Assembly (NCBI GenBank): GCA_905178155.1
Contig: CAJINV010000006.1
Span: forward strand, 4,408,339-4,472,338
DNA length: 64,000 nucleotides
Direction of reading: 5' to 3'
Source of the DNA: Amoebophrya sp. A120
Lineage: Eukaryota > Protista > Dinoflagellata
Shown: one piece after another, positions 3 to 64,000 of the stretch
Layout: the number at the start of each line of letters is the position of its first letter
Position numbering within the stretch: the stretch's first letter is position 1
Program-made: the position numbers and the translations under genes
The notes under the pieces: generated by a model
The model's database searches: none
Told to the model about the DNA's origin: nothing
Seen by the model: only the letters and a program-made list of their open reading frames with translations

Positions 3-324
3 TATCAAAATGAAAAATCCCCCCTCCCCATATCAAAACGGAAATTTGTGATGCTGATTTGTGGCCACAAATCAGCTTTGTATTGCACAGAGGCACTGCG
101 GCCAGATCCCCAGGCTAGGTAGGGGCGTATGGGTCTAGTAGTTCAGCATGGCAAACGGCCCCCATTTAGCCCCAACAGCATGGAAAATCGCTTCCATAAT
201 GGGGCGGAAGCTTCTGCCCTTGTCTTCTTGCAAGACAGATGTGATTTGTGGCCTCAAATCCGCAACGCAAATTTTTGGAAACATACCTTTTCAATATGGG
301 GAGGGGGGATTTTTCCTCTCAATA
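3..324. mobile_element. Introner family B
   Basis: TIR TATCAAAA..AAAAATCCCCCCTCCCCATAT; right repeat CTGCT. Confidence 0.85.
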
Positions 325-3300
325 CTGCTGGCTGCCCAACTACGCATACGCCACGTGTATGAGCTGAAGCGGTTGCCCGGACGAGGTCGGCCCATTGAGT
401 TGCGTAATATCAGTACACGTGCAGAAGGAGGAGGACCTAGCACAGCAGCAGTTGGCCAAGAAGTTGTAGAACAAGGCGAGGGGCAGCAGCAGCAGACGAC
501 CACGCAGCCTCCGACGGACAAGCTCAGCTTATACCATGCGACGAGCGGATATGGGAGTGTCAGGACCGAAATCGACAAAATCGAAAAATTTGTAATGCGT
601 AAAATTATGTAGGGCCCAAAAAAAGGCCTGTGTTGGAGAGGAGGCAAATGAGACCGATTGCAAGCCTGTTTAGCCCTAAACATGTACTGCCAGAGTAGCA
701 TGAGAGGCGCAGTCTTCTTTGCCCAAACAGCATGACAGACTGGATTTTGGTGCTCCCAAAATTTGTCATGCGCCACCTAGAAACTGAGGCTCCAAGTGGT
801 ATCGATTTTATGCATCACAGATTTTTTCGATTTTGTTGATTTCGATCCTGACACCCCCATAGCGGACAAGTAGAACAGGATCTACGACTTCAAGGGATGT
901 TATGGATTGTAAAAATGTCTGGGTCTCCTGGAAGATTCTAAACTTGTAGTGCTGTCTCTGGATTCTAAAAAAATTTGTATTGCATGACCAGCAAAAGGAC
1001 TCCAGTTTGTGCTACGTGGAGAGGGCATTTCTCATGCGGTAGAGGCATCACAAAGTACTCTAAAAATCTGTGATGCTAGGGCATGCATCACAGATCGATC
1101 CTGGATCATTCAAAATATGCATGACAAACCCGGCAATCTTCCAGACCCAGACATTTTTCCATTTGACAGATGTTGAAGAGTGACGATAGCAGAGGTAGTA
1201 CTTCTTCTGCCCACAACGCGTCGGCAGCTAACCTTTTGAAGATGCGGAGGACTTCTAGTACTGCGTCAGCTGCTGAACAAGACCGGGAACAACTACAGCA
1301 TCCTCCTTTGGAGCAGGAACAACGACACGTTCATCCTCTTCACTTTGACCCAGAAAATCGTAAAACTTTGCGACAAAAAAGTGGAGACCACACTATGGAC
1401 GACGAGGACAATAAATTCGTTCCCTGGCAAACCGAATTTCTGGAGCGCATGAGAAACCAAGTTCTACTTTCCGGTGGTTCACCTCGCTCGATGCACACCG
1501 CCGCGGACATTCTTCAGCAAAGACTGCAACTGCAGCAAGCCGATGACCTGCAAGCCGATCTAGATCTTTCGCAGTTGAGCAATTTACACCTTTCGTCCCC
1601 TCCTGCTCCTGCGGGGACGTCGAGCAGGGCTGTTGCATCTTCTCCTGCTCCTGCGGGGACCACGAGCAGGGCTGTTGCCCCGGTGGAGCAGGAGGAAGAT
1701 GAAGATCCTCCTGCAGGTGTTCCTGATAGTCCCATGATCAGGCAGGAACACAAGATGCGTCGGCGACAAAGCGGTAACCTTGGAGAGATATTGCGAGGTC
1801 AGGCTGTTGCTGAGAAGACAGCAAGGGAAATAAAACACGTGCTGCAACGATCGTCGTCGTCCAGCAGGTTGGAAGCAGTTGGAGAAAATGGAACAGAAAG
1901 AATGGACGTTTTTCGAGATACCGCTGCTTTACCAGACGAGTTCGCGCTAGAGCAACATCCTAGAAGTTGTACAACAGCGGAGAGGATGAAAATGGACGAT
2001 ATGATCAGCGGCGCACCAGGAGACTTGAGCGGTCTGATTATACCAGGGGGTCATCGTGGTACAACTGGGCGCGCAGCAGCCTGGATACAACAACCAGTTC
2101 TTCCACCCGACGAATTGCAAAAAGAACTACAGGAGGGACAACAAACTCAGATATGCTGTGTAAAAACGACGTCCCCATCACCATCTTTCCAGAGTTGTCA
2201 TGCAAATCTGCAAGTGCTTGAAATGTTTCTCATGCGAGCTGCCCCATGAGACGAGTTTTCTATATTGTATTTTGGAATTCGAATTTGTGATGCTCGAATC
2301 AGCAAGATCAGTGATGCTGCTCTTCAAACAGGATTACAACTTACAATACTAGGCCAAAGAACAACTTGTCATGCGCAGCAGCTGCCAATAGCAGACGTCT
2401 TGACTCTGGGAAGATGGGGACGGTTTATTTCCTCACAATATCTGGGGCAAGAACTTCTACTGCGCGAAAGTGGTCGTGGCTTTTCGGCCGACGGTCGCGC
2501 TGCTCGGGCGACGTCAAAAGATATTCAGCATGATGTAGAGCAAGTTCTGGACCCAAATTCTACAAGTCAGCACCAGGCCTTCTCCTACTCCGGTGGCGCT
2601 CTGGGCGCAGCAGCAGGACCACCTACCGGACTGAATAGAGGTAGTTCTCAGGATGCTCATGCTGCTCGTGATGAACCGCAGAAAATCACAGACCTAACGG
2701 GAGACTACCGTAGTACCAGCGGACGTGGTCTTGTCAGCCAGTCGAACCTGCTGTGGGCCCGGTTCTCCCCAGATAACTGCTGGAGGCAAATCGTTGTATC
2801 AAATGCAAAAATGTCTGGGTCTGGAAAAGTTCAAACTTGTCATGCAGATTTTCCATGACCCATGAGGTCTGGAATGCGGGACTTAGCATGACAGACTCTG
2901 TGAGGTCTCTGCCATGCCTATCCTGCATGAGAAACTCCCTTCCAACTTGGTCAAAAGTGGACAGCTTTTGGCACTCATGCAACACAGATTTTTGCATGCT
3001 TCAGATTTACCATGACAATTTGCCGCCTTCCAGACCCAGACATTTTTACAGTTGATACGTTGAGAGCGCAAACCAGGACCCGGCTGGCGCTCCTACTTCA
3101 TCCGCTGCAAGAGCCGTCGAGAAGAAAGAGGACACGCAAAACAAGCTGCAAAAACCGGGTCTGCCGAAGATTTTTAAAACTCTGACCGAAGAAAATGTGA
3201 AAATGTGGCAGGAACAAATGATGAAGCACAGCAGCAGCAATTCGGGCAGGGACGATCATGACCAGTACAAGGATATCAAATGCAAATATCGATAGTCTGG

Positions 3301-6240
3301 GCCTGGGAGGATCCGAACTTGTGATGCAGCCTGTTTCGGATCCTACAAAGATCTGTGATGCATAACGTGCAAAGAGGGCATAGCATTTCTCTGTGCCCAC
3401 TTCTCCGAGAAGAGACTCGCCATGCTGAGAGGGCATTTCATCTTATGCAGAACACGACGCATCACCAAGGAGCTGCAGAACCTGTGATGCTAGGCCCTGC
3501 ATTTTTCCAGACGTGGGGGCGCTTGGAAAATAAACTGCATGACAAATCTGGGAATTATCTCCCAGACCCAGACACAACTTTTGCAGTTGATAAAGGAAGA
3601 TCAGCTGCAAAAACAGCTTTGGCAATACAAGCAAGGCGCGGCGGGTGGTAATTATGGCTTCTTGTCAGGAGCACTGCACCCAGAAGACCACGAAGATCCC
3701 TGGACTGCCGCTCTTTTTTCGGAACAACAAGGTCTGACACCGGCGCAAGTAGGAGCGAGTGGAGACGATGAACACCAGCAGCAGGAGGCACAGCGCGATC
3801 GGGCGACTACACGAGGTGAAACTGCAGGAGGACTTCTAAAAGGGTCTACTGTCGTGGGAGGTGCTTTCGCAGGGACATCTTCAATGCAAGCACCGGGGGC
3901 TCCTGCTCCTCCGAGTGCCGTACCACGGGCAGGAAGCTTGTCCGCTTTGGCGCGAGGTGGACCTTTACAACATCAACAATCCCGCCGCGATGTAGCTTTG
4001 GACCCCCGGATTGCGTTCGATACTCGCATAGCAGAAGCGGCTCGACGAGGTATCCTGTGTAAAAACATCCCCACACCAGAGTCAGGATGGGGATTTTGCA
4101 ACACAAGCGTAGGAGTTTTGTGAGTCACGCATGACAAGTTGCACTCCGCAGTGTAGTGCAGGTTAGCAAGTGCAGCCGCATCACAGATTCATCTGCTCAT
4201 CCTGTTCACAGCATCACAAATTCCAAAATACGATTAGAAATGGCTCTCATGGGGATGCGCATTACAAGTCTTCCTGTCTTNCTTCCAGACCCAGACATTT
4301 TTACAGTTGATACGTTGAGAGCGCAAACCAGGACCCGGCTGGCGCTCCTACTTCATCCGCTGCAAGAGCCGTCGAGAAGAAAGAGGACACGCAAAACAAG
4401 CTGCAAAAACCGGGTCTGCCGAAGATTTTTAAAACTCTGACCGAAGAAAATGTGAAAATGTGGCAGGAACAAATGATGAAGCACAGCAGCAGCAATTCGG
4501 GCAGGGACGATCATGACCAGTACAAGGATATCAAATGCAAATATCGATAGTCTGGGCCTGGGAGGATCCGAACTTGTGATGCAGCCTGTTTCGGATCCTA
4601 CAAAGATCTGTGATGCATAACGTGCAAAGAGGGCATAGCATTTCTCTGTGCCCACTTCTCCGAGAAGAGACTCGCCATGCTGAGAGGGCATTTCATCTTA
4701 TGCAGAACACGACGCATCACCAAGGAGCTGCAGAACCTGTGATGCTAGGCCCTGCATTTTTCCAGACGTGGGGGCGCTTGGAAAATAAACTGCATGACAA
4801 ATCTGGGAATTATCTCCCAGACCCAGACACAACTTTTGCAGTTGATAAAGGAAGATCAGCTGCAAAAACAGCTTTGGCAATACAAGCAAGGCGCGGCGGG
4901 TGGTAATTATGGCTTCTTGTCAGGAGCACTGCACCCAGAAGACCACGAAGATCCCTGGACTGCCGCTCTTTTTTCGGAACAACAAGGTCTGACACCGGCG
5001 CAAGTAGGAGCGAGTGGAGACGATGAACACCAGCAGCAGGAGGCACAGCGCGATCGGGCGACTACACGAGGTGAAACTGCAGGAGGACTTCTAAAAGGGT
5101 CTACTGTCGTGGGAGGTGCTTTCGCAGGGACATCTTCAATGCAAGCACCGGGGGCTCCTGCTCCTCCGAGTGCCGTACCACGGGCAGGAAGCTTGTCCGC
5201 TTTGGCGCGAGGTGGACCTTTACAACATCAACAATCCCGCCGCGATGTAGCTTTGGACCCCCGGATTGCGTTCGATACTCGCATAGCAGAAGCGGCTCGA
5301 CGAGGTATCCTGTGTAAAAACATCCCCACACCAGAGTCAGGATGGGGATTTTGCAACACAAGCGTAGGAGTTTTGTGAGTCACGCATGACAAGTTGCACT
5401 CCGCAGTGTAGTGCAGGTTAGCAAGTGCAGCCGCATCACAGATTCATCTGCTCATCCTGTTCACAGCATCACAAATTCCAAAATACGATTAGAAATGGCT
5501 CTCATGGGGATGCGCATTACAAGTCTTCCTGTCTTTGCAAATCTGCACTACGGGGACGTTTTTATTCAGGATACGAGGGGCAGATCACTACGCAGAAGCC
5601 GCAGCAGGAGCAGCTGCACAGCTTGAGCAAGACGATCGGTTATTTCCCCACGACGACCACGACTCCCCTGAGCGGAGACAAGCCGTGGACCCTGGCAGGC
5701 TGAGTTGTATAAGCGATCGGAGCCGCAGCGCCCGGCTGAGGCCAGTGGATCTTGCCAGGGGACGGGGGGTGCCCCCGGGATACCCTGATCCGAGCCCATT
5801 CTTGAAAAGCATGAGCGGCTGCAGTCCGGATATGATGCACTGCACGAGCATGCAAGGAACCCCGCAGCAGCCTGATGGAGCCAGAAATAAATGGTCGTCT
5901 GAACAAGGGTATGAAATGCAAAAATGTCTGGGTCTGGAAGAATGCCAGGTTTGTCATGCATATGTTGCATGACACACTATGCCTGTAATGCATGGCCTAG
6001 CATCGCAGATTTTCATTTGGCTTCCTGATGCGTATTCCGCATGAGAAATGCCCTTCCCGGATAGCGCAAACTGGACTCCTCTTGCTGGTCATGCAATGCA
6101 GAACTTTTTAGAATCCAAAGACAGCATCACAAGTTTGTATTCTTCCAGACCCAGACATTTTTGCATTTCATAAAGGGCTGCAGGCAGGTGGTCTGGAGGG
6201 GCTCTTGCCTTTCAGCTTGCCTAGCGCCGATACTGACTAG
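325..6240 (+). CDS. 5'-partial spliced gene, low-complexity protein of unknown function (8 unique introner introns; 4282-5535 probably assembly duplication)
   Basis: Removing each element plus one 5-bp repeat joins ORF-track frames 148, 1170, 2265, 3539 and 5535 (e.g. ATG T|TG AAG; AAG GA|A GAT); ends LPSADTD-TAG at 6238-6240. No family recognised. Confidence 0.75.
550..861. mobile_element. Introner family E
   Basis: TIR TATGGG.GTGTCAGGA.CGAAATC; DR GCGGA. Confidence 0.9.
901..1168. mobile_element. Introner family A
   Basis: TIR core AAAAATGTCTGGGTCT; DR GATGT. Confidence 0.9.
2152..2440. mobile_element. Introner family C, diverged
   Basis: TAT..ATA ends, degenerate DR TCAGA/TCTGG, frame restored. 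Confidence 0.75.
2797..3057. mobile_element. Introner family A
   Basis: A TIR; DR CGTTG. Confidence 0.9.
3027..5535. repeat. 1.25-kb duplication across N at 4281 (probable assembly overlap)
   Basis: 3027-4280 repeated at 4282-5535; both breakpoints lie mid-introner. Confidence 0.8.
3274..3592. mobile_element. Introner family A (duplicate at 4529-4847)
   Basis: DR AAGGA. Confidence 0.85.
5306..5573. mobile_element. Introner family C (partial duplicate 4051-4280)
   Basis: TIR TATCCTG.GTAAAAAC..CCC; DR CGAGG. Confidence 0.9.
5910..6172. mobile_element. Introner family A
   Basis: DR AAGGG. Confidence 0.9.
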
Positions 6241-9011
6241 AGGTTTAGAAAGATAAGAACTCGACGTGCGGGCGGCTTTTTGGTCGTGTATAGCGCAGCT
6301 ATACTAATGTCTATACGTCTGCTCATCTTCCTAATTTTTGGGGAAGATTTTTTATTCGACACTTTTATTACTGTTTTTTTCAGCCTTGAAAATAAATCGA
6401 GCGTAGTTCATCTTTATGATATTTTTATCACTGGTTTCAAAATAGTACGTAAAATCGCAGAGAACAGTAGAGCTATGACAAGCAGTTTTTTCTTTTTCCA
6501 AAAAATCCAAAAAATGCGGCATCCAATTTTTCCAATATTAATCACATAAACGAGAATGCTCGACCACGTAACCGTGGCGGGGCCACGCAGCTACAAAAGT
6601 CCAAAAAATGAATAACGGGACAACTCGAGGAAGGTAGCGCGTACTTGTTGAGCTACTAAATTTTTTGACGGGAGGACGAGGACGAGATCTGCTTCCGTAT
6701 TAAATGAACAGAAATGGCACAAATGTAGAACGTCAAAAGAGCGCCAGTGCGGCGCTCGTTCTTTTTTTTTACTTTTATTCTCACGCTAGTTTATTGTTTC
6801 TCTTGATTTTTGAAGACTCTGACTCCCCTTTTGCTATCCAAAGCTACTTGATGCTGTGTAAAAGATTTTTTTACACGATCATGTAGCTGTACGACTGTCC
6901 TCGCCTCGCACTATCGACATTTAATGAAGTAACGTGGTTTCCAATTATTCCGTTTCATCTTCAACTTCATGACTATAATATCAGCACGTGAAAACATAAT
7001 TATACGTAGACCAAACTACTTCTACTACAAAATCGGTGACTGAGTTGTATTAAGCTGCGTAAGGCAAGTGCGTCGTGGTAGTCAGTTATACGACGCTGGT
7101 CTTTAACAAGAATGCATCAGTTACAGTATGATCTGCTATCGGCACTACATTCACGATCCGCACTTTTTATCCTTGCCTGTTTCTGCTGCTCTACCTGTAG
7201 CAGGCCGCGTCAAGATGGACGTAGGTTATTTCGTTTTGACTTTGAGTGAGAAATTTATTTTAGCGAGGAGGATGACAGCAGGAAGAAAGAATCGGATGAG
7301 GAGACATTTCTCCTTGCTGTTGTACCTCCGATGAAGGAAGCGAAACTTCGATGAAAGAAGTGATGAAAAAAAATAATTATGATCACTTCAACCTAGTAGG
7401 GCTGGAAGCAGCTATGCGGACAATTGATATCTGATAGCCTTTTTCACGCTATCTCCCCCTGATTTTTGTCCGCCCGCACTAGATGGTCATAATTTAGTTC
7501 TTGAAAGTTCCGCATCCGCACGCACGAGAACACACTATGTCATGGATGACAGCAGCAAAAAGGATAGCACTCCCGCGATTCAATATAAATCTTGCGCCTT
7601 TATTAATATTTGCTGTTGCCGACTGCTGTTATAAGTTACCGTGGTTTAGTGCCACCTTTTCAATTTCTTCTCACTCGCATGATGTGAACATCTCCTCCGC
7701 AAAAAACCGAATACCGACCACGTCTGGTGACCACGGGTAGAAGTAGCTGTTTGTATTATTTCTAAAAGTGAATAGAATACCGACATGTAAATATAGAAAA
7801 CATTTTTTTCATCTTGAATTGTACCGATATTAGAAGTGCGAGGCAGGATAGAACCACGTAAAATATAGAGAGTGATTAGAAGAGATTTTGTGCGACTTTA
7901 ATATTCCACTGCCTGGAAGATGATCTTTTGCGTCAAGACCATGTAGTACCATGTTGTAAAAAAACAAAAAGTTCTAACCGAGTTTCAACGAACTGCCAAA
8001 TATAGCGAACTGACACTTTGACTTTTGAAGATCAACTTCCCGAAGAGCTGCCAGCAGGTATTAGGGGATCGATGAAAAGCAAGCGACATCAGAAAAAAAC
8101 GCCAGCACAACAGTCTTCCCCAGGCCGCTTGTGAATTCTGTAATTTTATTCAAGAAGCAGAGCCACTATCTACAGGCTGTACAACTACAACCGCGAAGGA
8201 ATATAATTACACCGTAGCATAATTTTTACTTCAGTGTAAACAAAGAAAAAGATTTAGAGGACTCACCATTTTTTCGAGCCGGATGTTGAGCAGTTGCTTG
8301 GCATGATACGGACATCGAAATTGAAGCTGCCTTACTGTAAATAGACTTTATAATTTTGCAACAAGACAGAAGGTCACTCGCCAAGGGTCTAGACGAGCAA
8401 AAAGCCGCGAGCTACTGAGACAAGAGCACGAAAATTAGGGGCCCATGTAGTCTGATGCAATGACGATAATGTGACCACGACATTAGATTTTTGTGGTATG
8501 AAGAAAACTTATTTGGATTTTTTTATCCGGAATTAATGTGTATTTACTAATATCGTTGTAAATTCCAATTACATGATTCGGCGAGGCTACTGTGTTTTTA
8601 GTCTCAACCAGCTTCCATCAAAATCTAATGAGGCGCAGTAGACCTCCACTTCTATGTGTATGTCTACAACTTTTTGATCATTGTGTTGTCGACTGCGTGG
8701 TAAAGACAAACAAAAAACTTTTTGTTCAGGTACTTAAATGCGACCCGCTCCACAAGGTCGGTTGTCCGCAGAATTATTGGACCACGGTGCCAGGCCCGTT
8801 TCTTTTTTGACCCTTTTTGGTCAAAAAGAACCAGCCACAGCGAATCCTTATCGGAGCACTGAGTAAGAAGTACTTGGAGACATAGTATGAACCAAGAGGC
8901 GACGGATATTTATGATTAGCTATGATACCATATGACAGTGCACAACTCCCCGTCCCCCTGATTAATATTTACATTGCTTGACTTCCGGGTTCTGGTACGG
9001 CATACCCCCGG

Positions 9012-9188
9012 CGACAGGTGACCTCGACAGGTGACCTCGACAGGTGACCCCGACAGGTGACCTCGACAGGTGACATCGACAGGTGGCCTCGACAGGTGAC
9101 CTTGACAGGTGACCTTGACAGGTGACCTGGACAGGTGACCTGGACAGGTGACCTGGACAGGTGGCCGCGACAGGTGACGACGACAGGC
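9012..9188. repeat. 13-bp tandem repeat CGACAGGTGACCT, ~13 copies
   Basis: Directly visible. Confidence 0.95.
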
Positions 9189-9478
9189 GGGGCGAGAGGA
9201 TAAATCACAGGCGAGGTCAACGCCTGCGCTCATGTCGTTCTTGACGTGAAAAGCAAATATTTGCGACACAGAAAATGAAAAAGATAAAAGCGCAAAAAAA
9301 AAAACTGCGACGTCGCAGAAAATGGAAAATATCAAAGCGCAAAAACACAAAATGCCCCCACACAGAAAGAAGTTTTTGCGCTGCCATGCAAAAATGAAAA
9401 AGTGCGTATCTCTGCAATGCACGCCCAGGAGACGGCTTATATATGATGACGAGGCAGCACCTATTTCATCCTTTTGCC

Positions 9479-10679
9479 AGTAGCGCTTCGCGCACTAAGC
9501 CACCATGCGCGCGCCTGGTGTGAGGTGAAGGGCGGACGCTGTCCGCCCCGATGGCGAACACCCTTCCCCCACTAGCGTTTCGCGCACTAAGCCACTATGC
9601 GCGCGCCTGGTGTGAGGCGAGGGGCGGACGCTGTCCGCCCCGATGGCGAACACCCTTCCCCCACTAGCGTTTCGCGCACTAAGCCACTATGCGCGCGCCT
9701 GGTGTGAGGCGAGGGGCGGACGCTGTCCGCCCCGATGGCGAACACCCTTCCCCCACTAGCGTTTCGCGCACTAAGCCACTATGCGCGCGCCTGGTGTGAG
9801 GCGAGGGGCGGACGCTGTCCGCCCCGATGGCGAACACCCTTCCCCCACTAGCGTTTCGCGCACTAAGCCACTATGCGCGCGCCTGGTGTGAGGCGAGGGG
9901 CGGACGCTGTCCGCCCCGATGGCGAACACCCTTCCCCCACTAGCGTTTCGCGCACTAAGCCACTATGCGCGCGCCTGGTGTGAGGCGAGGGGCGGACGCT
10001 GTCCGCCCCGATGGCGAACACCCTTCCCCCACTAGCGTTTCGCGCACTAAGCCACTATGCGCGCGCCTGGTGTGAGGCGAGGGGCGGACGCTGTCCGCCC
10101 CGATGGCGAACACCCTTCCCCCACTAGCGTTTCGCGCACTAAGCCACTATGCGCGCGCCTGGTGTGAGGCGAGGGGCGGACGCTGTCCGCCCCGATGGCG
10201 AACACCCTTCCCCCACTAGCGTTTCGCGCACTAAGCCACTATGCGCGCGCCTGGTGTGAGGCGAGGGGCGGACGCTGTCCGCCCCGATGGCGAACACCCT
10301 TCCCCCACTAGCGTTTCGCGCACTAAGCCACTATGCGCGCGCCTGGTGTGAGGCGAGGGGCGGACGCTGTCCGCCCCGATGGCGAACACCCTTCCCCCAC
10401 TAGCGTTTCGCGCACTAAGCCACTATGCGCGCGCCTGGTGTGAGGCGAGGGGCGGACGCTGTCCGCCCCGATGGCGAACACCCTTCCCCCACTAGCGTTT
10501 CGCGCACTAAGCCACTATGCGCGCGCCTGGTGTGAGGCGAGGGGCGGACGCTGTCCGCCCCGATGGCGAACACCCTTCCCCCACTAGCGTTTCGCGCACT
10601 AAGCCACTATGCGCGCGTCTGGTGTGAGGCGAGGGGCGGACGCTGTCCGCCCCGATGGCGAACACCCTTCCCCCACTAG
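9479..10679. repeat. 92-bp tandem repeat, 13 near-identical copies
   Basis: ACTAGC recurs at 9571, 9663, 9755 etc.; the unit contains hairpin GGGGCGGAC-gct-GTCCGCCCC. Confidence 0.95.
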
Positions 10680-12120
10680 AGCCACTAAGGACGGGCACAA
10701 GGCCCCAGCGTGGGGACCCTGTCCCCACGCGTGGGTCTTGTTTGTCATGCAAAATACTCAGTCCACCCTTTGCCTCTTGGCACTGTTTGCATGACAAGTT
10801 CTGGTAGCCCAAATAGCACTACACTCCACGTGCAAATTTGTCATGCAGAACCGGCATTCTTGCTGATCCTGATGCTTGTATTGCCGTTCATGCTATACAA
10901 ATGAGGGGGAGGGGGAGTTGTGCACTCTCATATACCAAGTACGATCCAAGAGGCGACGGATATTTATGATTAGCTACGATACCAAGTATGCATCAAACTA
11001 CAGTGCGACGAGTCTTAATTCTACTAAAACAATCCGGCTCTGATGCTGGAGTAAATTATACTTAAAACACCTCCGAAGAACTTGTAGTGTGGTTAGGGAG
11101 GAGGTGGATCCATCGTGATTTACAACTTTTCTATCGAAGCGGTTATGAGGCGGAAACCATAGGAAGTCCGGATCGAGGCACTGACTAACTACTTGGAAAC
11201 ATATATCAAANTAGAGCCACTAAGGACGGGCACAAGGCCCCAGCGTGGGGACCCTGTCCCCACGCGTGGGTCTTGTTTGTCATGCAAAATACTCAGTCCA
11301 CCCTTTGCCTCTTGGCACTGTTTGCATGACAAGTTCTGGTAGCCCAAATAGCACTACACTCCACGTGCAAATTTGTCATGCAGAACCGGCATTCTTGCTG
11401 ATCCTGATGCTTGTATTGCCGTTCATGCTATACAAATGAGGGGGAGGGGGAGTTGTGCACTCTCATATACCAAGTACGATCCAAGAGGCGACGGATATTT
11501 ATGATTAGCTACGATACCAAGTATGCATCAAACTACAGTGCGACGAGTCTTAATTCTACTAAAACAATCCGGCTCTGATGCTGGAGTAACTTATACTTAA
11601 AACACCTCTTAAGAACTTGTAGTGTGGTTAGGGAGGAGGTGGATCCATCGTGATTTACAACTTTTCTATCGAAGCGGTTATGAGGCGGAAACCATAGGAA
11701 GTCCGGATCGAGGCACTGACTAACTACTTGGAAACATATATCAAATGCAAAAATGTCTGGGTCTGGAAGAATGCAAGTTTGTCATGCTTGTCTGGCATGA
11801 CTCGAGAATCTGTGTTGCATAGGCACGAAAGAGCCCTCTTTACTGTCACGCGAAAAGGCAGTTTGCCTTTGCCATGCGGAATACTCAAGACATGGCAGCC
11901 ACAAAATTTGTCATGCTTATCTGCGTACCGCGGCGCGTCTATCATTCACTTTTAACATTACAAGTTTCCAGACCCAGACATGTTTCCATTTGATAACATA
12001 GTATGATCCAAGAGGCGACGGATNCCGCGGCGCGTCTATCATTCACTTTTAACATTACAAGTTTCCAGACCCAGACATGTTTCCATTTGATAACATAGTA
12101 TGATCCAAGAGGCGACGGAT
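10677..12120. repeat. Duplications across Ns at 11211 (534 bp) and 12024 (96 bp), probable assembly overlaps
   Basis: 10677-11210 ~ 11212-11745 (a few SNPs); 11928-12023 = 12025-12120. Confidence 0.7.
11739..11995. mobile_element. Introner family A
   Basis: DR ACATA. Confidence 0.9.
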
Positions 12121-16500: not shown

Positions 16501-17127
16501 TGCTTCATGGCGAAACTGTGGCGCTCTTGTTGCTTTTATGCAATACAGATTTTTAAGGAATGGTGGACACGCAACACAGATTCAACCTTTCCAGACCCAG
16601 ACATATTTGCGATGCATATGCTGTTCGAAGTCCTCATGCGCACGGTTGGAAAGGACTATGACAAGATTACTACAACAAGAGCTCCTACCTCTGAACATGA
16701 GCCGAAAAAAACACACCAGCACTCGGAAGTGAAAGAAGCCGAGCGAGTGTTGCTGCAAGTGCTGCAGACTTGCGTCGATTTGAACCCTTTTTTGAAGTTG
16801 TACGGGGAAGAAAGTGTGGCGAAAGTGCTGCGGTTCTTCGTGAATATGAAGACACAGATGAAAGGTGGTCGTGAGGACGAAAATCTACGAGAGGGCCCTC
16901 GTGCTGACCACCCTGTTCAAGAAGTACGTGCTGTCAGTACGAGTCACGCGACCTCCTCGTCCTCGCACGCTACTACTCTGACAACAACTTCATCTCCGGA
17001 TGTTCCTGCGACAACTTCTTCTTCAACTTCTAGAGGGGCTGGGCCTGGGGAAACTAGTACAACCAGAAATAACTACCGTCGCACCTGGGCCAGCCTACTT
17101 GACACAGTGCGGTTTGATCGCATCTAG
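13565..17127 (+). CDS. Spliced gene, Ser-rich protein of unknown function
   Basis: ATG 13565; removing 13917-14238 plus TCAGC joins FQ-LVTERE into the 707-aa frame. The last junction (chimeric element 16228-16618) does not restore frame by the simple rule, so the final exon is tentative. Confidence 0.65.
13917..14238. mobile_element. Introner family B
   Basis: DR TCAGC. Confidence 0.9.
16228..16618. mobile_element. Chimeric introner (C left end, A right end)
   Basis: Mismatched TIRs, no matching DR (GATGT/TGCTG). Confidence 0.7.
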
Positions 17128-19577: not shown

Positions 19578-19880
19578 GGCCATCCGGGCCATTCGAGCCA
19601 TTCGCGTGGGCCGCCCGGGAACGGCCGGCGCACCGTTCAGGGGCAGTCCATTCGACCCATTCGCGCGCGCGAACGGCCCGAATGGGCTGAATGGGTCGAA
19701 TGGATCTAACGGCCTGAATGGCTCGAGTTTCCGGTCCATTTAGGCCTGTAAGGTGGGCCGCTCGGTCCATTCGGGCCCTGCGAATGGCCCGAATGGGTCG
19801 AATGGCTCGAATGGGTCGAGTGGCTCGAATGGATTTCCGGTCGTTTTCCGAATGGATCGAATGGCCCGCGGCTGAACGGG
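19578..19880. repeat. 9-mer (CGAATGGSY/GCCATTCG) repeats in direct and inverted orientation
   Basis: gccattcgagccattcg on the left; gaatgggtcgaatggctcgaatgggtcg on the right. Confidence 0.75.
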
Positions 19881-20282
19881 CCCGCGGGCCGGCTGGGCCG
19901 GTCTGGTCCGAAGGCCCGGCCGTCTGGCCGGAAGCGCTGTGGCGGAGGGCCGGGCGCCTCGTTTGCGTCATATTTTTTTGCCTGCTTGCAGGACGACGGA
20001 ATCGAAAATGCCATAGGAGCGGAGGGGAGCACTGGCGGGCGTAGCTGGTATCTTGCGCTGCATGCGCGTGGGCCCTTTGATCGGGCCAAGCCTCGGGTCG
20101 TCGCTTCGCCACCATGGCGTCTCGGCTTGGGTTCACGGGAGTTGTGCGAGGCGTGGCGCACCAGGTCCCAGGTGGAGATAATATGGAGCAACATTGTTGT
20201 CGGGCTGCGTGGAGATGAATGGCCGAAACGTTCAGCAGTGCCACGACCGGGAACACAGATGGCGGACCAGCTGGCCCCGGGA

Positions 20283-20297
20283 CCATTTTGGCTCAAG
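20283..20297 (+). other. 15-nt match to the 3' part of the dinoflagellate spliced leader
   Basis: CCATTTTGGCTCAAG vs DinoSL DCCGTAGCCATTTTGGCTCAAG; not followed by GT, so not an SL RNA gene. Confidence 0.45.
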
Positions 20298-52396: not shown

Positions 52397-54936
52397 TAGT
52401 AGTTAATTTAAATTTAAATAAAAAAAACAGTTCCTTCAGGCACAGACTCCAAATTTTTACCTTGCAACTGCGAAAAACAGGACTACAATGCAACTTTTAG
52501 AGCAGCACTGCTTTGTGACCTTCCCAACTGGTAGACTTTCAACTTTCAAGACCGACAACAGCGTAAGTTTTCAACAACTTCTATTTTTCTCGTCTCAACT
52601 TTCAGACTTTATCTTTTCCTTTTCAACAAGAACGCTTTACTTTTCAAAAACGACTTTAAGAGTTTTACGTTTAGTTTTCAAAATAGTATCTATCGTTTTC
52701 TGTTGCCAGGTTCGTGTAGTTGTCCAACAGAAAAAGGTTTTTCTATGAGGGTCCAAGCCACAAGTTGCTTGCCCAGCTTGTCTTTTTGTTGAAGTAGCGC
52801 TAGCCACGTGAGAGAAAGCAAAAAACTTTCAAGAGGTTCCGCGTGACCACTCACAACAAACAAACAAACAAACAAGATATTACTCAAAATAGAAATATAA
52901 GATAGGCATATTAGGACGATAAATTTTTTATGGGCGTTCACAACATTTCTCATTCTGATTCTTCCAGCATACAAGCTATTTCACTGTATCTGCAGTTTTT
53001 AGAAGTTCAGAAGCATCAAAAAATCTATCCGATAAAAAAGTTGCTTTTACTGTACCTGATGTGACGAGTTACATGCTGGCTTAATGCCGCAGAGAAATGT
53101 GCCACCATTAATTATGTCAGTATACCAAGCTGCTTTTTTTTTTCATTCTTTTTAAATGTACTTCTCGCATGATCTCACCACAGCCACGGCCATGTCAAGA
53201 ATGTCATCTCTATGGAGTGGGCCTGTGCGCGTGGGGTCGTGAGCTTTGTCTCTTGAGCGACACGATTTTATTTATTTCTGTGTAGCAACCCTTTTTCATT
53301 TTCTTTTTCTTTATGGTGGAGCTGCCGCTGAGGCAAAATGCTATCAACGTAAGAAGTGCTCGCGAGAGAGCTTTTTCTATTCGTCAAACGATCCATTTTT
53401 TTTTCCGATAGACGATGCATGTCCAAGAGCAAACACGCAATTTTGTCTTCTGGTTTTAGAGTATTAATTGAGTTGTGGAATTAAGGTGAAGCATGCAATG
53501 GAAGATAGAAGACATTTTGTTTTTGATTTTGGTACAGTGCAACTTGCTAGTACCTGTTCCAGGTTTATGATTTTGGTTTTCAGGGTGGGAGTAAAGCTAA
53601 AGGCGATAGAAAATCAGAGTTGTTTTATGCTTCAAGAATTTTGTTGTGCCATGGACATGGTTTATTGCTGTCGATACTGCGATAGCGATTTACATACCGA
53701 TACCGTGCCATGGTAAAAACCTTTTTTGCACCTTCAGTAACTGCTGTAGGCAACTGCATGAAGATCCATCTTCATGCGCCGCAGTAGAAGCAAGGTGGGT
53801 ATTAAAAGAGATTTTTGGATAAATCTACAAAGTTGCTTTGTTATTGTTTGATCAACAAATTATACAAAGGGCTCTTCCTATTACTGGGCACAGCGGTCGT
53901 GGTGGTAACAAGGTGAGAACGTTTGAGATTGGAGGAAAAAGGAAGCGTATCAGGTAGAAGAAGCTTTACCACGGCATTTATTCACTCTCCCTGTTTTCCT
54001 ATAGAGGGTGACTAGGTGTATGGAAATTGCCCCTACTTATGTTGTTGTTTTGTTTCTAATGGGGGACGAGAAGATGGAAATAAAGTATAACCGCTGTACT
54101 TACAAGAAAGCCAACGTGGCATTTGGGGAAAAAAAATACAGCAGCTGCAGACTACGCTATCTAGTATCAAAAAGGAGAGGAACCAGGTTGTTCCTGGTCG
54201 ATGAAAAAGGTTGTGGAAAAAAGAACCAGTAAGTATAAGCATTGATATTTTGAAGCGGCGGAGCAATGCTGTGGTGATTTTTTTTGGAGAAAGCAGATAC
54301 ATAGCAGCTGCTGTATTTCGAATCAAGCGACGTACAGCATGTGGTTGATATTAGCTGGTATAGGGCGCGGAAGACGCAAGAGTTACCATGGGAAATAAGC
54401 TGTTCATCGTCATCCTCGTGTTAAAGCTCCATCGACCAAGCTGATAGGCGTTTCGAGAAATAAGCCAAGCTCACTGCTGCTACTCTGATCTAATTTTTGC
54501 GATCATCGTTTGCTGTTTCTAGACGACACGTCGATCCAGCAGTAAGGAAGATCAGCATCCCGTGATTTTGAATCGCATCGCCAACGATCATGAAATTTTT
54601 GCGTCCCTTTGGCGATCTTTGTTTTTGCTCTTTGTTAATTTTCTTTTTGCATGGGTGCATCGGCTCCAGAGGTGCCGGTTCCTGGTCATCTGGTTCGTTT
54701 TTGTTTTGCAACGTTCATTGAGAAAAAAACGTCACCTACGACAAAATATTTCATCTGTATTTCTTTTTTCAACATCAAGACCGTCTCCTTCGGCAAAAAT
54801 TGGATCGCAAGCGTCGAGGGGCACAGAAACGTGATTTCATCTGTTGTTTCGCTTATTTTAGTACCTTGTTCTGTTGCAGAACTACAATATCAATATTTAT
54901 CAGTCGTGCAACCGCAAGGCACAACGTGTTTCAACT

Positions 54937-57900
54937 ATGTTTCAATCACGTGGATTGGGTGGAGCGGGCATTTCTCATTCTCTGCCCTGCGTGCTGGCGA
55001 AGACACTTCTACTGTTTGTGGCAGTAGTCGTGCATCAATCTGCGATTTCAGAAGTCCACGCGTCCGAAGCCGGGCGGAAATACAGCGAAGATTACATCAC
55101 GGATCTCTCCTATCCAAGAAAAAAACTTTGTAAGTGTAAATCTGTGATGCGAAGCATGTAACACACTTACACTTGTCATGCTAGGCAACCATGAAGTCCT
55201 CTTTCATATGTGTTTTCACGTACTGGCTGTGCGTGACAGGCTTTCTTTGTAATGCGGAACAGATTTGGCATGCTGTCACCTCAAGACACGTACACCAACA
55301 CAATTTTTTTCTTGCGATATCTCCTGGTGCCGGAGCTTGTCCCACCACTTCAAGTGGGAACGGTTGTTGCAATTGCAACGAAACTGCGAGCTGACGGTCG
55401 TAAAAAGAGAACAACAACTTCTATCAAGCGGCAGCTATAGCAATTTTGTTGGTGTGGAAGAATTGGAACTTTTTCTCTGTAGCGACAACGCAGATTGTTC
55501 TACCAATCCTTCCGGTTCAACATCAGCATCAGCATCGCCTTCTTCCCCTGGAGATGAAAAGAAAGCGACAGCAGATCATGCAGACCAACCGGATACCGCT
55601 TTCTCGAAAGCAGCCGACGCAGTAGAATTTGCGCTGGAGTGGCAATGGGCTCGTCCTATCCTGAGTAAAAACGCACCCACACCAGAGTTGTAGTGCAGAT
55701 TTGCAAAGACTGGAAGACTTGTAATGCGCATCCCCATGAGAGCCATTTCCAGTCGTGTTTTGGAATTTGTGATGCTGTGAACAGGATGAGGAGGTGGATT
55801 TGTTATGCGGATTCCCTTGCTAAACTGCACTACAATACAGCCTGCAAGTTGTCATGCGTGACTCACAAAACTCCTAGGTTTGTGTTGCAAAATCCCCACC
55901 CTGACTCTGGTGTGGGTACGTTTTTACTCAGGATACGTCCCACGGAGTATCTATGTGCGAACGGCTTGGTCACAGCGACGCTGATACTTCTGCATGAGGA
56001 TGTGAAAAACCGGTTTTTAGCCACCTTTGCGCAAGATGTTGACACCAACGCGGACGATGAAACTCGCACTACGAATGCAAAAAATTATTCTATCCTCGAC
56101 TTGCACAAGGCCCTGCAAATCGAAGCGCTGTTGAAGCGGATGAGCGAGAAGGTTTTTCTTCTGGACGCGAGCTTGTGGGGCGGAAAGTCGTTCATGGTGA
56201 AAGAATATTTTCAGAAATACAGCCGGTTACTAGAGAGAGGAGGACCACAGAACGACCACAACCCTGAGGAGATGAACAGTAGACATCCGATGTCACAACT
56301 AAAAAACAGTATTGTCGAACCTGATGAAAATATCGCCGCTGAGATGGAGAAAATGCGTGCGCAGCCGGTGACGTTTCTGGTGCCCGAATTGACGGAAGAT
56401 TTGGCTTTGCATCTATTGGAACATTTTGCGAACGAGCATTTGATATTGACTTTTAAGCCGGTTGAGCAAAAGAATTATAGAGAAGAACCTGCTTCTCTCG
56501 TCGATACTGGCGAGGACAAGAGCCGTGGTGTCAGCAAGCAGGACCAGGAGCAGGCTGAAGTCGATGCTGCGAACGGGGAGAACAATGATCTAGCCGTCAC
56601 TGACGATTTGGTGACAAACCGGAAAAATAAATCCGCGGACGAACAAGAAGCAGTGGACAATAAGTGGCACTATGAACTTATGAACTGCAAAAGTATCGTA
56701 CTCGTATAAATGCATGACAAATTCCCTCAGCATGTTGAGAAACAAAATTTGTAATGCGGATCTACCTAGAGAAAAGAATTTGTAATGCAAGACTTGCATT
56801 TGTACGAGTACGATACTTTTGCACAGGATAGAACTGATGGACATGAAGTTAAAAAACTGGGTCTTCTTTGACCATATGCATTGCAAATGTGTCCTCTGGG
56901 TGTGTGGAAACTTGTGATGCTTGTACATGTGTGAGAAGCTACTGACTCCAATACGCAGCCACGCATGAGAACAAATTTATCAGCGGTTATGTGGTGCGCA
57001 ACCTGCAGGAGAAATCGCGTTTTTGCATGACAGAGGGTTGTTGCTAGTCCACAACATGCATCTTCACAGAGTTCAGGATCAGGGGTATGGATGCGAGTTC
57101 AGCAATACAAGTCTCGCACTCTGCTTCCAGACCCAGATCGATATTTGCAGTGCATAGACCACCCCGCGGACCAGCAACACGCACAGGAGGAGCAGACAAT
57201 GATTGGCACGCTCGTGAATGGGATGGCGGAGAATGTGCCCACCCCACTCGCTTTCGTAGTGCTGAACAAAAATTTCCTGCCCAAAAACCGCCAAAGCTTG
57301 CTGAAGATGATCCGGTACGCGACCTTGGAGCAGGACAACGTGCAAGTGGTTGGTACCGGATTCGCGAAAATCGGGAATGTTTTGAACGACTGGTGCTACG
57401 TTTTGGAGTTGAAGGATTGGCGGATGAAGTTTTCCCCTTGGTACAGAGAGTCTTTACTCGCGGTGAATACCCAGTTGAAACAGCAACTGCAGATGATGGG
57501 GTTATCAAATGCAAAAATGTCTGGGTCTGGGAGAGGCACTCTGTTTTTGCATGAGACAGAAGGTCTGGCATGGAAGCCCTAGCATCACAGGTTTCGAAAA
57601 GGTTCCGCAATGCCTAATCCGCATGACAAGTCCCCCACTTTGGTGGCAGAAAGTGGGCAACTTTTGCTGTCTATGCATGAGAGATTTGTGTGTGCTGTGA
57701 AATGCGCATCACAAGTTTGCACACTTCCAGACCCAGACATATTTGCAATGCATAGGGGTCGCTGCAGAACCAAAGAGTTGATGGAGATCACGCAGGAGCT
57801 GCGTCCAGTCAGTCTGAAATGCAGCAGCAACTAATGCAGGAGTTTATCCAAGAAAACATCCTGGGCACTTCCATCCGTGGATCCTGGTTTGAAGGCGTGC

Positions 57901-60398
57901 AGGACGACCAAAATAACCCCGACGGCACTTCTACGCAGAATCTTCAAATGATATCCTTCCCAGCGAAGGTCTGTGACACCACCAGCCCCTCTTTTCTGAT
58001 CCGCACAGAAGTTTTGAAACGAATCCCGCTGGTATCCTGAGCAAAACCGGGCTGGCCCACACCCCATAGTCAAGATAGGAAATCCGCTAGACAAATCGGC
58101 AAGCTTTGGCTGTTGCGCATGACGAATTTAAGGTCGGGGCGTAGTGGTCTTTCGCTATTGTACCAGCATCACAGACCTCGCGTATCATTCTGATTCGAGC
58201 GTCACAAAAAGCGAAACACCACTAGGGAATGCTTCTCATCATGGGTCTCCGCATGAGAAACATTTTACGCATGCAGAATCGCATTACAACTCTGGCGGCG
58301 TGGGGACGACGTTTTTACACAGCATAGCTGGATCCCTCGAATATCAAACACGGGGATTTACTCGCGCTGGAATACTTTATCCGGCTGAAAAAACAACTAC
58401 CAGTACCGGTGAAAGTGGCGAGCGTAGTAGACGCCGAGATGGGATATCTCGTTGGGGAGGGCAAGGAAACAGCACCTGGTGCCAGCGAAGTACTAGCGGA
58501 GCGGAGTGAGCTACATCAACCAGTAGATGAGAGTACAGTTTCTAAGTGTACGACTTGCGTTGACGCGGAGACCTTCATAGGAGACGACGGGTTCTCAACA
58601 TCGGGAACAAGCGCAACAACGAATTATACACGACGACCCGCCTCCCATCCTACTAGTAGTGCAACCTCCAAGAACTCGTCCCCAAGAATGATAATTACAG
58701 CCGCCTCTAGTAGAACATCAAGTTCTGCTATGCTCTACGGCTCTTCCATCTTCCTGACCGACAATCCAAGTAAAATCAAACAACTGGAATCTCTCTGGCG
58801 TGCCCTCGCGGGGAAGAAATTTGCCGCTGTCACCGACCTACGCGAAGTGGAATTGCCGCACTTTGCGCAGGGGGAAATCGGGTTTGGGAGCCTGGAGTCC
58901 CGGTTTCAGGAGCAGAGAGAAATGATGTTGGCGGAGCAGGAAAGAATAAAAACGCCAACCAGTGCAGCTATTCCAGCAAATAATAAAATACAAACAACCC
59001 AGCACCACCGTTCCTTCCACCAGGTCACCACGGTTCTGAATTTCGGGTGCAACCTTTCTATTGCGAATTGTGAAATTCCGCTGTGGGTTTACCGTGGTTG
59101 GTCAGCTCCGCCGTGTTGCAGGCGGACGCTGCGCCGGCTGCTGTTCTACATCACAGACCTCTTCGACAAAGTCGGGATCCGCTATTTTTTGACCGACGGG
59201 GGATTGTTAGGGGGATTGAAGTACCATTCTCTAATTCGTTGGGACGCAGACATTGACTTGCAAATCCACGGAGAGGATTTCGACAAGTATCTGCTTGGGA
59301 AAGCAGCATTACAAACTGGGACTAGCATCGGGTTTCCGCATGACAAATCAAGTAATCTTACCACAGCATCAACGACCTTGGAAGAGCAGATCACGAAAGA
59401 TGGTTTTTTTTTGCGCAAACATCAGACCTCGAAGACACAGTTTCTGCTGCAAGTATCCTGTGCAAAAGTATCGTACTCGTAGTAATCGCAGTCATGCATT
59501 ACAAATTTCTTTCTCAAGTTAAATCCGCATTACTCTCACGCTGGGGAAATTTGTCATGCGATTTATACTAGCACGATGCTTTTGCATTTCATAGCAAGCG
59601 AACGTGAACAACTACCTTTTGATTGAGCTGAATAAGCGGGATTACGACCAATGGTTCTTCAACGACGACGACGATGAAAATGTAGATGCTGTGGACATAA
59701 AACAAGGCGACGTCAAGACCAGCGAGGTCGTGGAGAAAAGAACTAAATTACCCGTGGAGGGCAAGCTGTTCGATGTAGTGTACAAACCAGCAGGGCGAAG
59801 AACAGGTTATCAAATGTAAAAATGTCTGGGTCTGGAAGAATGCCAGACTTGTCATGCAGGTTTTCCATGACTCATGAAGTCTGGTATGTAGGACATAGCA
59901 TGACAGATTCTGTGAGAGTTCTATCGTGCCTATCCTGCATGAGAAATTGCCGCTCGATTAGGTCAAAAGTGGGCAGCTTTTGGTAATCACGCAACACAGA
60001 TTTTTACATGATTCAGATTTAGCATGACAAGCTGCTTTGTTCCAGACCCAGACATTTTTGCATTCCATACAGGTAGAAATACACCAACACCAACTGAGAA
60101 GAACGACGAGCAAGATCATCATCTGCACGAGACAACAACGTCCTCACCCGAAGATGCAAGAAGTGCAACTACATCTACTTCAGAGACCACGACGTTGAGA
60201 GGCCATCCACTTCGAGCAGATACCTTCACACCCCTCAAAGCGGTTCGAAACTGGTATGGCTACGGGTTTCTCGCCAATCGGCTACGGCACGTGCCCGAAT
60301 GGGAGGAAGCGGAGAACCCCTTGTTCTGTGCAACGCCCTATCACCACAACTGCGCGGATTTGCTGGCCAGCGCTGCGGTGCCCAGGGTTGTGTTTTGA
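54937..60398 (+). CDS. FKRP: Fukutin-related protein-like (FKRP/LicD family) phosphotransferase, ~1180 aa, 8 introners
   Basis: FGC..C...WSAPPCCRRTLR..GIRYFLTDGGLLGGLKYHSLIRWDADIDL matches the FKRP zinc loop and LicD WDxDxD motif; N-terminal signal anchor; all 8 junctions restore frame. The start codon is inferred. Confidence 0.85.
55111..55319. mobile_element. Introner family F
   Basis: DR TCTCC. Confidence 0.9.
55657..55935. mobile_element. Introner family C
   Basis: DR CGTCC. Confidence 0.9.
56679..56830. mobile_element. Introner family D
   Basis: DR GAACT. Confidence 0.9.
56875..57156. mobile_element. Introner family A, diverged
   Basis: DR GACCA. Confidence 0.85.
57503..57754. mobile_element. 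Introner family A
   Basis: DR GGGGT. Confidence 0.9.
58033..58326. mobile_element. Introner family C
   Basis: DR GCTGG. Confidence 0.85.
59454..59593. mobile_element. Introner family D
   Basis: DR GCAAG. Confidence 0.9.
59808..60069. mobile_element. Introner family A
   Basis: DR CAGGT. Confidence 0.9.
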
Positions 60399-63044: not shown

Positions 63045-64000
63045 ATGCATCGGTTCGATACGTTTTCGAAGCCGCTACAGGAGTTTCAGGTGAAAACGAA
63101 AATTGGCGGCTACCTCTCCGTAACGTCAGTATGCATGATCGTGTACCTGCTGCTGTCGGAGGTGATGTTCTTCCTGGAGCTCGAGCAGAAAGACGAGATG
63201 GTGATAGACTTGTATCAACTGCAAAAGTGTCTGGGTCTGGAAGATTGCAACTTGTCATGCTGTTTTTGGACTCTAAAAAAATTTGTATTGCATGACCAGC
63301 AAGAAGAGGGGTGCAATGTGTGCTACACGGACAGGGCATTTCTCATGCGGAAGGTGCATCAGGAGGGCCTTTAAAAGTCTGCGAAGATGCTAGGTCATGC
63401 ATTACAGGCATCACGGGTCATGAGAAATATGCATGACAAATCTTGCATTCTTCCAGACCCAGACATTTTTGCATTTGATAACTTGAACCAAGACACAAAA
63501 ACCTTCAAGATGCACCTGGATTTGTGGGTAAGTACTAAGTAATTTGATTGATGTTGCAATGCGTAGCAAGAATAGTATACCCTGTGATGCATGAAATCGC
63601 ATGAAGTGAATTTTTTGTCCAAAAAAAAATCCACAAGAATTTGTTCTACAAATACACAGCTTCCAGAACTTCCTTGCGCGGTTGTCGCTTTGAATTTGGT
63701 ACACGTCAAGAACCAGGATAACGTAATGCACGTCGGGCACACGATATCGCAGGAAAAAAGTTTCACAGTTACACATTTGTACGTGGATTCAGCATCACAA
63801 ACTTGCGCAGCCTGACAGAGAAAATTTGCAATGCAGAAATCATAAAGGCAAAACACACATGAAACGAGGCTCGCAAGCATCTTGCGCATTCCAGAGGTTG
63901 TTTATCTTGCGTGCTTTGCAACACAATGTGTAGCTGTAACGTTTTTTCTTTGCATACACGATCTTGAAGCAGAGGTGGGGCAAGGACCCGAAGTCAAGAG
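63045..64000 (+). CDS. ERGIC3: ERGIC3/Erv46-family ER-Golgi intermediate compartment protein, 3'-partial
   Basis: Spliced MHRFDTFSKPLQEFQVKTKIGGYLS-TM-EMVIDL|NQDTKTFKMHLDLW|LPELPCAVVALNLVHVKNQDNVMHVGHT|ILKQR matches the ERGIC N-terminal pattern; 2 introners and 1 GT-AG intron. The paralogue assignment is less certain than the family. Confidence 0.85.
63213..63480. mobile_element. Introner family A
   Basis: DR ACTTG. Confidence 0.92.
63528..63659 (+). other. Canonical GT-AG spliceosomal intron
   Basis: GTAAGT donor, ACAG acceptor; joins DLW to LPELPC in frame. Confidence 0.85.
63745..63956. mobile_element. Introner family F
   Basis: DR CACGA. Confidence 0.9.

Follow-up and report, generated by a model that had tools for sequence, protein, structure and literature searches.

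The window analysed here is a stretch of 64,000 nucleotides from the dinoflagellate Amoebophrya sp. A120 (contig CAJINV010000006.1; 50% G+C, three N), and the genes that it carries are interrupted by 66 elements that have terminal inverted repeats (TIRs) and, in most cases, a 5-bp direct repeat on either side. Taking out an element together with one copy of its repeat (element+5) retains the reading frame at nearly every element, and at two junctions the position of the cut could be fixed exactly. The elements are already known, being the introners of A120 published in 2021, and the cutting register and spaced internal motif that we add to them are modest additions. The genes and elements are given below, with positions counted from the first letter of the window.

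3-6172, plus strand: gene 1 (unknown protein), 879 stop-free codons across 7 junctions with the assembly duplicate excluded
3-324 (left repeat lost at the window edge), 550-861, 901-1168 (ends in ACA), plus strand: elements of gene 1
2152-2440 (repeat TCAGA/TCTGG), 2797-3057, 3274-3592, plus strand: elements of gene 1
5306-5573 (repeat CGAGG, readable as GT-AG), 5910-6172, plus strand: elements of gene 1
8931-10932, no strand assigned: element of 2002 bp, repeat TACCA, flanks without an open frame
11739-11995, minus strand: element of the largest family, repeat ACATA, flanks open on the minus strand only
13917-14238, plus strand: element of gene 2 (open reading frame, ORF, from 13547), repeat TCAGC
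16228-16618, plus strand: hybrid element, left end of one family and right end of another, without a 5-bp repeat
25553-46734, plus strand: gene 3, a 2831-aa ORF once 43 elements are removed
25853-26157, 27211-27372, 27428-27696, 28150-28454, 28827-29105, 29349-29664, 30504-30759, 31000-31306, 31595-31874, 31916-32592, 32942-33919, plus strand: elements of gene 3
34060-34386, 34469-34732, 34918-35169, 35320-35576, 35648-35910, 36003-36259, 36359-36569, 36623-36931, 36998-37222, 37278-37549, 37612-37918, plus strand: elements of gene 3
37955-38216, 38340-38542, 38561-38826, 38880-39097, 39233-39538, 39583-39848, 39977-40240, 40708-41190, 41252-41527, 41592-41743, 41957-42214, plus strand: elements of gene 3
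42296-42568, 42705-42969, 43151-43413, 43683-44011, 44056-44271, 44314-44567, 44690-44921, 45259-45413, 45644-45872, 46186-46408, plus strand: elements of gene 3
48520-48784, plus strand: element in the stretch coding the C-terminal tail of protein P0001, repeat CCTGT
54862-60398, plus strand: LicD-domain (FKRP-like) gene, a 1208-aa ORF once 8 elements are removed
55111-55319, 55657-55935, 56679-56830, 56875-57156, 57503-57754, 58033-58326, 59454-59593, 59808-60069, plus strand: elements of the LicD gene
63045-64000, plus strand: 5' part of an ERGIC3-like gene (Pfam ERGIC_N) with elements 63213-63480 and 63745-63956
63528-63659, plus strand: canonical GTAAGT...CAG intron of the ERGIC3-like gene, between its two elements

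A scan that demanded TAT...ATA ends, a 5-bp repeat matching perfectly on both flanks and complementarity of 11 or more of the 16 terminal bases found 47 pairs in the window, a figure that contains a few cross-pairs, and none in any of 30 dinucleotide shuffles. When TAT was not demanded, 44 inverted-end pairs with a 5-bp flanking repeat were found, 37 of them TAT...ATA. When the repeat was not demanded, there were 87 TAT...ATA pairs, of which 36 had an exact 5-bp repeat, 9 had only 2-4 bp, 42 had none (mostly cross-pairs between copies) and not one had 6-8 bp. Twelve degenerate copies gained by homology search brought the candidates to 69, from which three were removed: 18362-18618 as a chance pair lacking homology, the internal motif and an open frame, and 4529-4847 and the hybrid 4051-4312, which both arise from an exactly duplicated stretch of 1254 bp that surrounds the N at 4281. 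The 66 that were kept agree with the approximate number given in an earlier note on this DNA. Near-exact tandem duplications flank each of the three N (3027-5535, 10677-11745 and 11928-12120), and these are likely to be assembly joins and not biology.

Statistics on termini and repeats refer to the 63 elements of plus-strand genes (those at 3, 8931 and 11739 excluded). The left end is TAT in 61 and the right end ATA in 60, with both in 58, which leaves five that deviate from the TAT...ATA rule that the note had proposed for all; the right end is ACA in two. An A is found at TIR positions 11-15 in 48-59 of the 63, and the 5-bp repeat is perfect in 50 and imperfect in 13. Grouped at 70% cover and 65% identity, 67 candidates form 21 groups, nine of them with several members and the biggest with 24, and the claim of ten or more families was a fair one. 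Lengths are 140-329 bp in 62 of these 67 candidates, the other five measuring 391, 483, 677, 978 and 2002 bp. Within the one 24-member family both orientations occur inside plus-strand genes, and no element of the window holds a coding ORF. Short, bounded by TIRs and a target site duplication (TSD), without coding capacity and dispersed both ways round, the elements have the properties of MITEs (miniature transposable elements with inverted repeats), that is, of non-autonomous TIR transposons. Internal inserts are present in elements 31916-32592 and 40708-41190, and the 2002-bp element 8931-10932 is enlarged by a 92-bp tandem array of ~13 copies (9477-10679).

A terminal motif search of a metagenome collection gave at least 136 related loci, of which 134 (620 kb) were analysed; the 80 rows listed for them share one accession prefix. 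Their elements are at most 96% identical to the window copies. Among 468 TIR pairs there, with no repeat demanded, 279 have an exact 5-bp repeat, 5 a repeat of another length and 184 none. Curation gave 381 elements, 160 of which could be oriented via long frames, and these 160 show no base bias at any of the five repeat positions, in keeping with the arbitrary repeat sequence that the note had described. An excess of G at the fourth repeat position among the window elements (31/63, p 0.0004) was considered as a sign of splice-site selection and rejected, as the related elements have 50/160 against a background of 30%.

Removal of element+5 retains the frame at 62 of the 63 elements. It gives an ORF of 2831 aa over 43 elements and another of 1208 aa over 8, compared with at most 843 aa when element+0, +1, +3, +4, +6 or +7 is removed; frame length alone cannot separate +5 from +2 or +8. 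At 51 of 51 junctions +5 does better than +3 and +4, and any single one of 51 elements, if retained, shortens the ORF. The note's claim of a frame restored throughout fails at the hybrid 16228-16618, where +5 misses the long downstream frame that is reached by +1, +4 and +7. The left TIR of this hybrid is one base longer than that of its family.

Homologous proteins were used to compare the possible lengths of removal. The ERGIC3-like product is identical to P0006 at 104 of 110 residues without a gap, and +5 gives the top score for both elements against four of four homologues; the frame that the note saw in this gene stands as far as the elements go, but the ordinary intron at 63528-63659 has to be removed as well. 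The product of 54862-60398 matches Pfam LicD with an E of 6.8e-06. FKRP-type proteins carry a LicD domain, and the identification of this gene as FKRP has the LicD match in its favour but no support beyond it. Comparison with orthologues favours +5 at three junctions of the gene that lie inside ungapped conserved blocks. Overall, +5 scores highest against P0003 at 5 of 8 junctions and against P0004 at 4 of 8; the remaining junctions are in parts that align poorly, and there +2 or +8 scores equally or up to 8 points higher. A crude six-frame test on the related loci speaks weakly for +5 (71 of 131, versus 50 for +4 and 43 for +3).

Joined sequences were available in contigs of the runs X4 and X7, which represent one sample whose RNA status is guessed, none of the matching runs listed being recorded as RNA. 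Among the 15 joints listed, out of 49, in 27001-46900 (42 elements), 11 are skips of exactly element+5 in these contigs, none of them with GT-AG ends, and the remaining four link repeat copies. The note had proposed a check on cDNA junctions, and in these probable RNA contigs the elements are indeed skipped at 11 junctions with no cryptic GT-AG site used there. Furthermore, the proteins P0001 and P0002, named by their source as Amoebophrya sp. A120, are 100% identical to two proteins of the window; the products spliced in silico match them at 1144/1144 and 948/948 residues, 36597-46659 corresponding to residues 1-1144 of P0001. The contig joints and the protein matches both bear out removal without a scar, and the identity to A120 proteins, together with a published description (PMC7789003), supports the link to the non-canonical introners of Amoebophrya. 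In the raw RNA reads of runs X12 and X13 only fragments on repeats were found (221 and 127 reads, all partial fits), and for the upstream half of gene 3, with the imperfect repeats of 27211, 28827, 31916, 35320 and 36003, no annotated protein was found. The X4 and X7 contigs also jump from 46660 to 48129, where the tail of P0001 maps as well, and in doing so skip 1468 nt bounded by direct repeats of 34 bp. Neither a TAT...ATA element nor a GT-AG register was seen in this skip, which could be an intron, a DNA variant or an artefact.

Where the two repeats of an element are perfect, six registers of cutting give an identical mRNA, and it is the imperfect repeats that mark the cut. Two introns have exact ends.

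44313-44571, plus strand: element 44314-44567, extended by 1 nt to the left and by 4 nt to the right; repeat CGGGC/CGGAG
45643-45876, plus strand: element 45644-45872, extended by 1 nt to the left and by 4 nt to the right; repeat GCGGA/GCGAC

The joint 44312>44572 skips 259 nt with an ambiguity of 0 in both X4 and X7, and protein P0001 is concordant; the joint 45642>45877 skips 234 nt, again with an ambiguity of 0. In both cases the repeats mismatch at positions 4 and 5, and the contigs retain bases 1-4 of the left copy and base 5 of the right. At 44314 and 45644 the intron takes in 1 nt ahead of the left TIR and 4 nt beyond the right one (the -1/+4 register). Only under this register is P0001 matched at 1144/1144 residues; other registers give 2-5 mismatches. 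Four more loci bound the left offset, to 0-1 at 39233, 0-2 at 39977 and 0-3 at both 38880 and 41957. For the largest family the offset is 1 in one orientation (44314) and the mirror offset of 4 is excluded in the other (41957), which indicates, with one locus of opposite orientation, that the register follows the transcript and not the element. We infer that N-UAU...AUA-NNNN, seen at two junctions and compatible with four more, is the general form of these introns. The 19 imperfect repeats of the related loci yielded one in-frame stop, which excludes offset 4 alone at one locus, and in the genes around them no conserved family was found that would polarise them. Imperfect repeats are natural markers of the cut and could be counted genome-wide in existing reads.

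It is improbable that element+5 is lost as described but with a cut that shifts inside the repeat between loci, the six informative junctions concurring by chance. Such sliding would accommodate the fact that exact ends are available at two junctions only and that the hybrid at 16228 requires another length; by hand arithmetic, six independent uniform registers would share some common register in ~15% of cases. The legend of a published Fig. 3 calls the position variable (PMC7789003), and the donors and acceptors annotated for A120 families are a mixed set (PMC12130899). However, mixed annotated sites are to be expected from aligners where repeats are perfect, and an offset of exactly 1 is required twice, which by the same kind of hand arithmetic puts the observed pattern at ~0.002. 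In addition, all nine top A120 site types in Table S4 begin with NT, and the legend of Fig. S23 reads '1-5' (PMC7789003). These NT starts and this legend may already reflect the -1/+4 register.

With a -1/+4 ruler, element+5 would be removed from any target, and of a normal donor only the U at +2 (and the A at +3) would be kept. GT-AG ends arise in 2 of 63 elements in this register, where an NNAGG repeat makes each of the two a plain GT-AG intron, and in 3 of 63 in any register (5306, 31000 and 59808). The earlier statement that there is no GT-AG is correct for the 11 contig joints but not for these three elements.

An 8-bp motif, TGT[C/G/A]ATGC with variants, is present in both orientations in all family groups, with 244 matches in 20.6 kb of elements against 7 in the 41.2 kb outside them. 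Of 132 intervals between consecutive matches, 46 measure 30-33 bp, whereas 6.5 are expected and the maximum in 2000 simulations was 18, with the qualification that copies of one family are not independent in these counts. Nine of 11 family groups show this spacing, as do 293 of 745 intervals of the 381 related elements. A spacing of 31-33 bp, three turns of DNA, suggests protein sites on it, most simply for a transposase, and sites of the form TGTCATGC, paired 31 bp apart, are a candidate binding target for such an enzyme.

The note had regarded the transposase as unresolved, and this is less open than it claimed: one A120 family with integrase-related ORFs, a 5-bp TSD and TA/TA termini was reported in 2025, among 22 of 58 A120 families considered, but with no complete enzyme (PMC12130899). 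Introner family 38 of A120 (Gozashti et al. 2025, PMC12130899), ~810 bp long and with 5 copies, resembles our elements by its description. Most elements of the window have TA...TA termini, as GingerRoot transposons do, those of Ginger being TG...CA, and GingerRoot shares with them the TIRs, an unbiased target and, with its occasional TG...CA ends, perhaps the 2/63 ends in ACA (PMC6839031). The TSD differs, being 5 bp here as compared to 4 bp in Ginger1 and 6 bp in Ginger2 and GingerRoot; moreover, GingerRoot elements are 4-13 kb long, encode an integrase-related transposase and are not mentioned as introns in the available text (PMC6839031).

The TA-bounded inverted ends and the helix-phased motif indicate a DNA-binding enzyme, and the RNA status of X4 and X7 is only guessed, so we considered whether the elements are excised from DNA in some life stage, like the internal eliminated sequences of ciliates, with the joined contigs representing such DNA. 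This is very improbable. The register follows the direction of the transcript at one informative locus, the genome assemblies of the window and of the related loci carry the elements inside coding exons, and we know of no germline/soma split in the host group. Support from RNA-seq has also been published (PMC7789003).

The reading that we favour, at a probability of about one in two, is that the elements are short TIR, 5-bp-repeat non-autonomous DNA transposons (MITEs) that are spliced from pre-mRNA by a modified U2-type spliceosome, which would place its cuts from a predicted terminal hairpin and not from GT/AG. It is rated at this level because the register keeps the U at +2 and the A at +3, because it fits class 12 of the Polarella introner-like elements and because A120 retains most of the spliceosome; of 89 spliceosomal proteins only 6 were not detected, and U2, U4, U5 and U6 were present, whereas the U1 small nuclear RNA (snRNA) was not found (PMC7789003). 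Insertion, in either orientation, leaves a 5-bp duplication of unbiased sequence. One integrase-like transposase, similar to that of Ginger or GingerRoot, would move all families by reading the TA ends and TGT[C/G/A]ATGC at a spacing of 31-33 bp. In the transcript the two TIRs are predicted to pair, and 52 of 62 elements are predicted to fold such that 8 or more of the first 16 bases pair with the opposite end. The 5' cut would then precede the stem by 1 nt and the 3' cut follow it by 4 nt, as is the case at two junctions and compatible with four others, and catalysis would presumably be spliceosomal and proceed through a lariat. The coexistence of canonical and odd introns in the ERGIC3 gene supports a spliceosome.

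Polarella glacialis provides the same geometry with a normal G and AG, as its class 12 elements have a 5-nt TSD and, in one frame, a donor made of the last TSD base and the first element base and an acceptor within the TSD (NNAGG); they differ in that the target must supply the G and the AG and that one orientation is used, whereas the elements of the window tolerate any target and both orientations (bioRxiv 2020.10.14.339549). The note had proposed a dedicated removal system that ignores splice dinucleotides. The free repeat and either orientation agree with the second half of this claim, but a relaxed spliceosome fits equally well, because the invariant T of TAT lies at intron +2 as in GT donors and because NNAGG repeats become GT-AG introns.

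The same elements and the same -1/+4 ruler could instead be served by a dedicated endonuclease and ligase, not spliceosomal, that read the TIR stem, as suspected for the nonconventional introns of euglenids. We take this for a serious though somewhat doubtful possibility, rated as it is because the junctions show no selection for G or AG and the donor is predicted to lie hidden in the stem. The lack of G or AG bias at the junctions, the removal of both orientations and the stable predicted terminal stem all suit such an enzyme, as do the undetected U1 snRNA of A120 (PMC7789003) and the release of euglenid TIR introns as full-length circles and not lariats (PMC11282704). Nevertheless, no candidate enzyme was identified, the register retains U at +2 and A at +3, as in a normal donor, and matches the spliceosomal geometry of Polarella, and the tunicate Fritillaria removes TIR-derived non-GT-AG introns by a changed U2 spliceosome (PMC11282704; PMC13326754). 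Euglenid and Fritillaria introns resemble those of the window in being derived from MITEs with TIRs and a TSD and in lacking GT-AG, the ends of the former also being held by a stem (PMC11282704; PMC13326754). In euglenids, however, the stem pairs +4..6 with -8..-6 (CAG/CTG) and the intron leaves as a circle (PMC11282704), while the stem predicted here starts at +2 with UAU, and Fritillaria prefers AG-AC or AG-AT and has a divergent U2AF in its U2 spliceosome (PMC11282704; PMC13326754). On balance, we consider a relaxed spliceosome more likely than a dedicated enzyme. It is unlikely, but conceivable, that a single ruler serves all A120 families in the hands of a machine blind to end dinucleotides, other than the ordinary spliceosomal reaction, that cuts at -1/+4 of the stem and renders any 5-bp insertion harmless both ways, in combination with one integrase-like transposase binding TGT[C/G/A]ATGC phased by three turns.

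Several observations weigh against splicing by a modified spliceosome with a fixed ruler. The register is based on six junctions, all in one gene, a number too small to establish a genome-wide rule; X4 and X7 come from a single sample of guessed RNA; and the annotation of P0001 was built from transcript alignments and is not independent of RNA. Donors are AT 17, CT 17, GT 15 and TT 14 of 63, with no trace of selection for a G at +1 or a 3' AG; the repeats of the 160 oriented related elements contain AG 13 times and its mirror word 10 times, and GT-AG would be possible in four. The donor bases are predicted to lie inside the stem, with a mean pairing of 0.44-0.87, which would hinder pairing with U1 and U6. 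The branch-like word GCAUNACA, which is the motif read backwards, is located at 30-50 nt from the right end in no more than 35 of 62 elements. The splice position relative to the hairpin has been called variable and unknown (PMC7789003), and the hybrid at 16228 does not fit the ruler; this hybrid offers a natural way to tell from which point the ruler counts. Neither the window nor 9 long TIR pairs nor 73 ORFs of at least 300 aa from the 134 related loci yielded a transposase.

The A120 introners of Farhat et al. 2021 have inverted repeats that start with TAT and end in a stretch of A, and direct repeats of 3-5 nt with one 5-bp example; they are ~240 nt long, form a hairpin and make up 29,850 repeated introns with RNA-seq support (PMC7789003). 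The elements of the window agree in host, in the TAT-start TIR with its A stretch at ~11-15, in a border repeat of 3-5 nt, in families that are absent from probable transcripts and in ends that are mostly not GT-AG. As far as the available text shows, the 2021 account reported no transposase in A120 and left the intron border within the repeat unknown, and the shared 8-bp motif and its spacing are absent from it (PMC7789003). On how tens of thousands of Amoebophrya introns are removed without GT-AG, no later study of the splicing mechanism or register was found in the literature searched, which did not extend to subscription papers. With the register, the substrates for mapping lariats or circles are exactly defined, and the phased motif offers a handle for a transposase search. 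Some related elements lie beside or in core genes, namely those for RNA polymerase Rpb1 (L042:2117-3301), an SNF2 helicase (L009:5890-8352) and a C5 DNA methylase (L010:591-2090), which are conserved and would be useful for tests of junctions.

A search of viral contigs gave no TIR match, and the window has no Rfam match. Outside the genes listed above, a 4-kb element with split direct repeats occupies 21338-25338 (167 bp at 21338/24957 and 101 bp at 24864/25238). It holds a 309-aa ORF with a weak CCCH finger and a 411-aa ORF (22051-23283) without a Pfam match, whose C-terminal residues appear in the order R...HxxR...H/W...Y, which we take to be that of tyrosine recombinases. From its sequence, it looks like an element of the Ngaro/PAT type without a reverse transcriptase. 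Two further intergenic structures are an inverted repeat at 19130-20366, with arms of 50 bp lying 1137 nt apart, and a near-perfect hairpin at 47507-47738 with arms of 96 bp.

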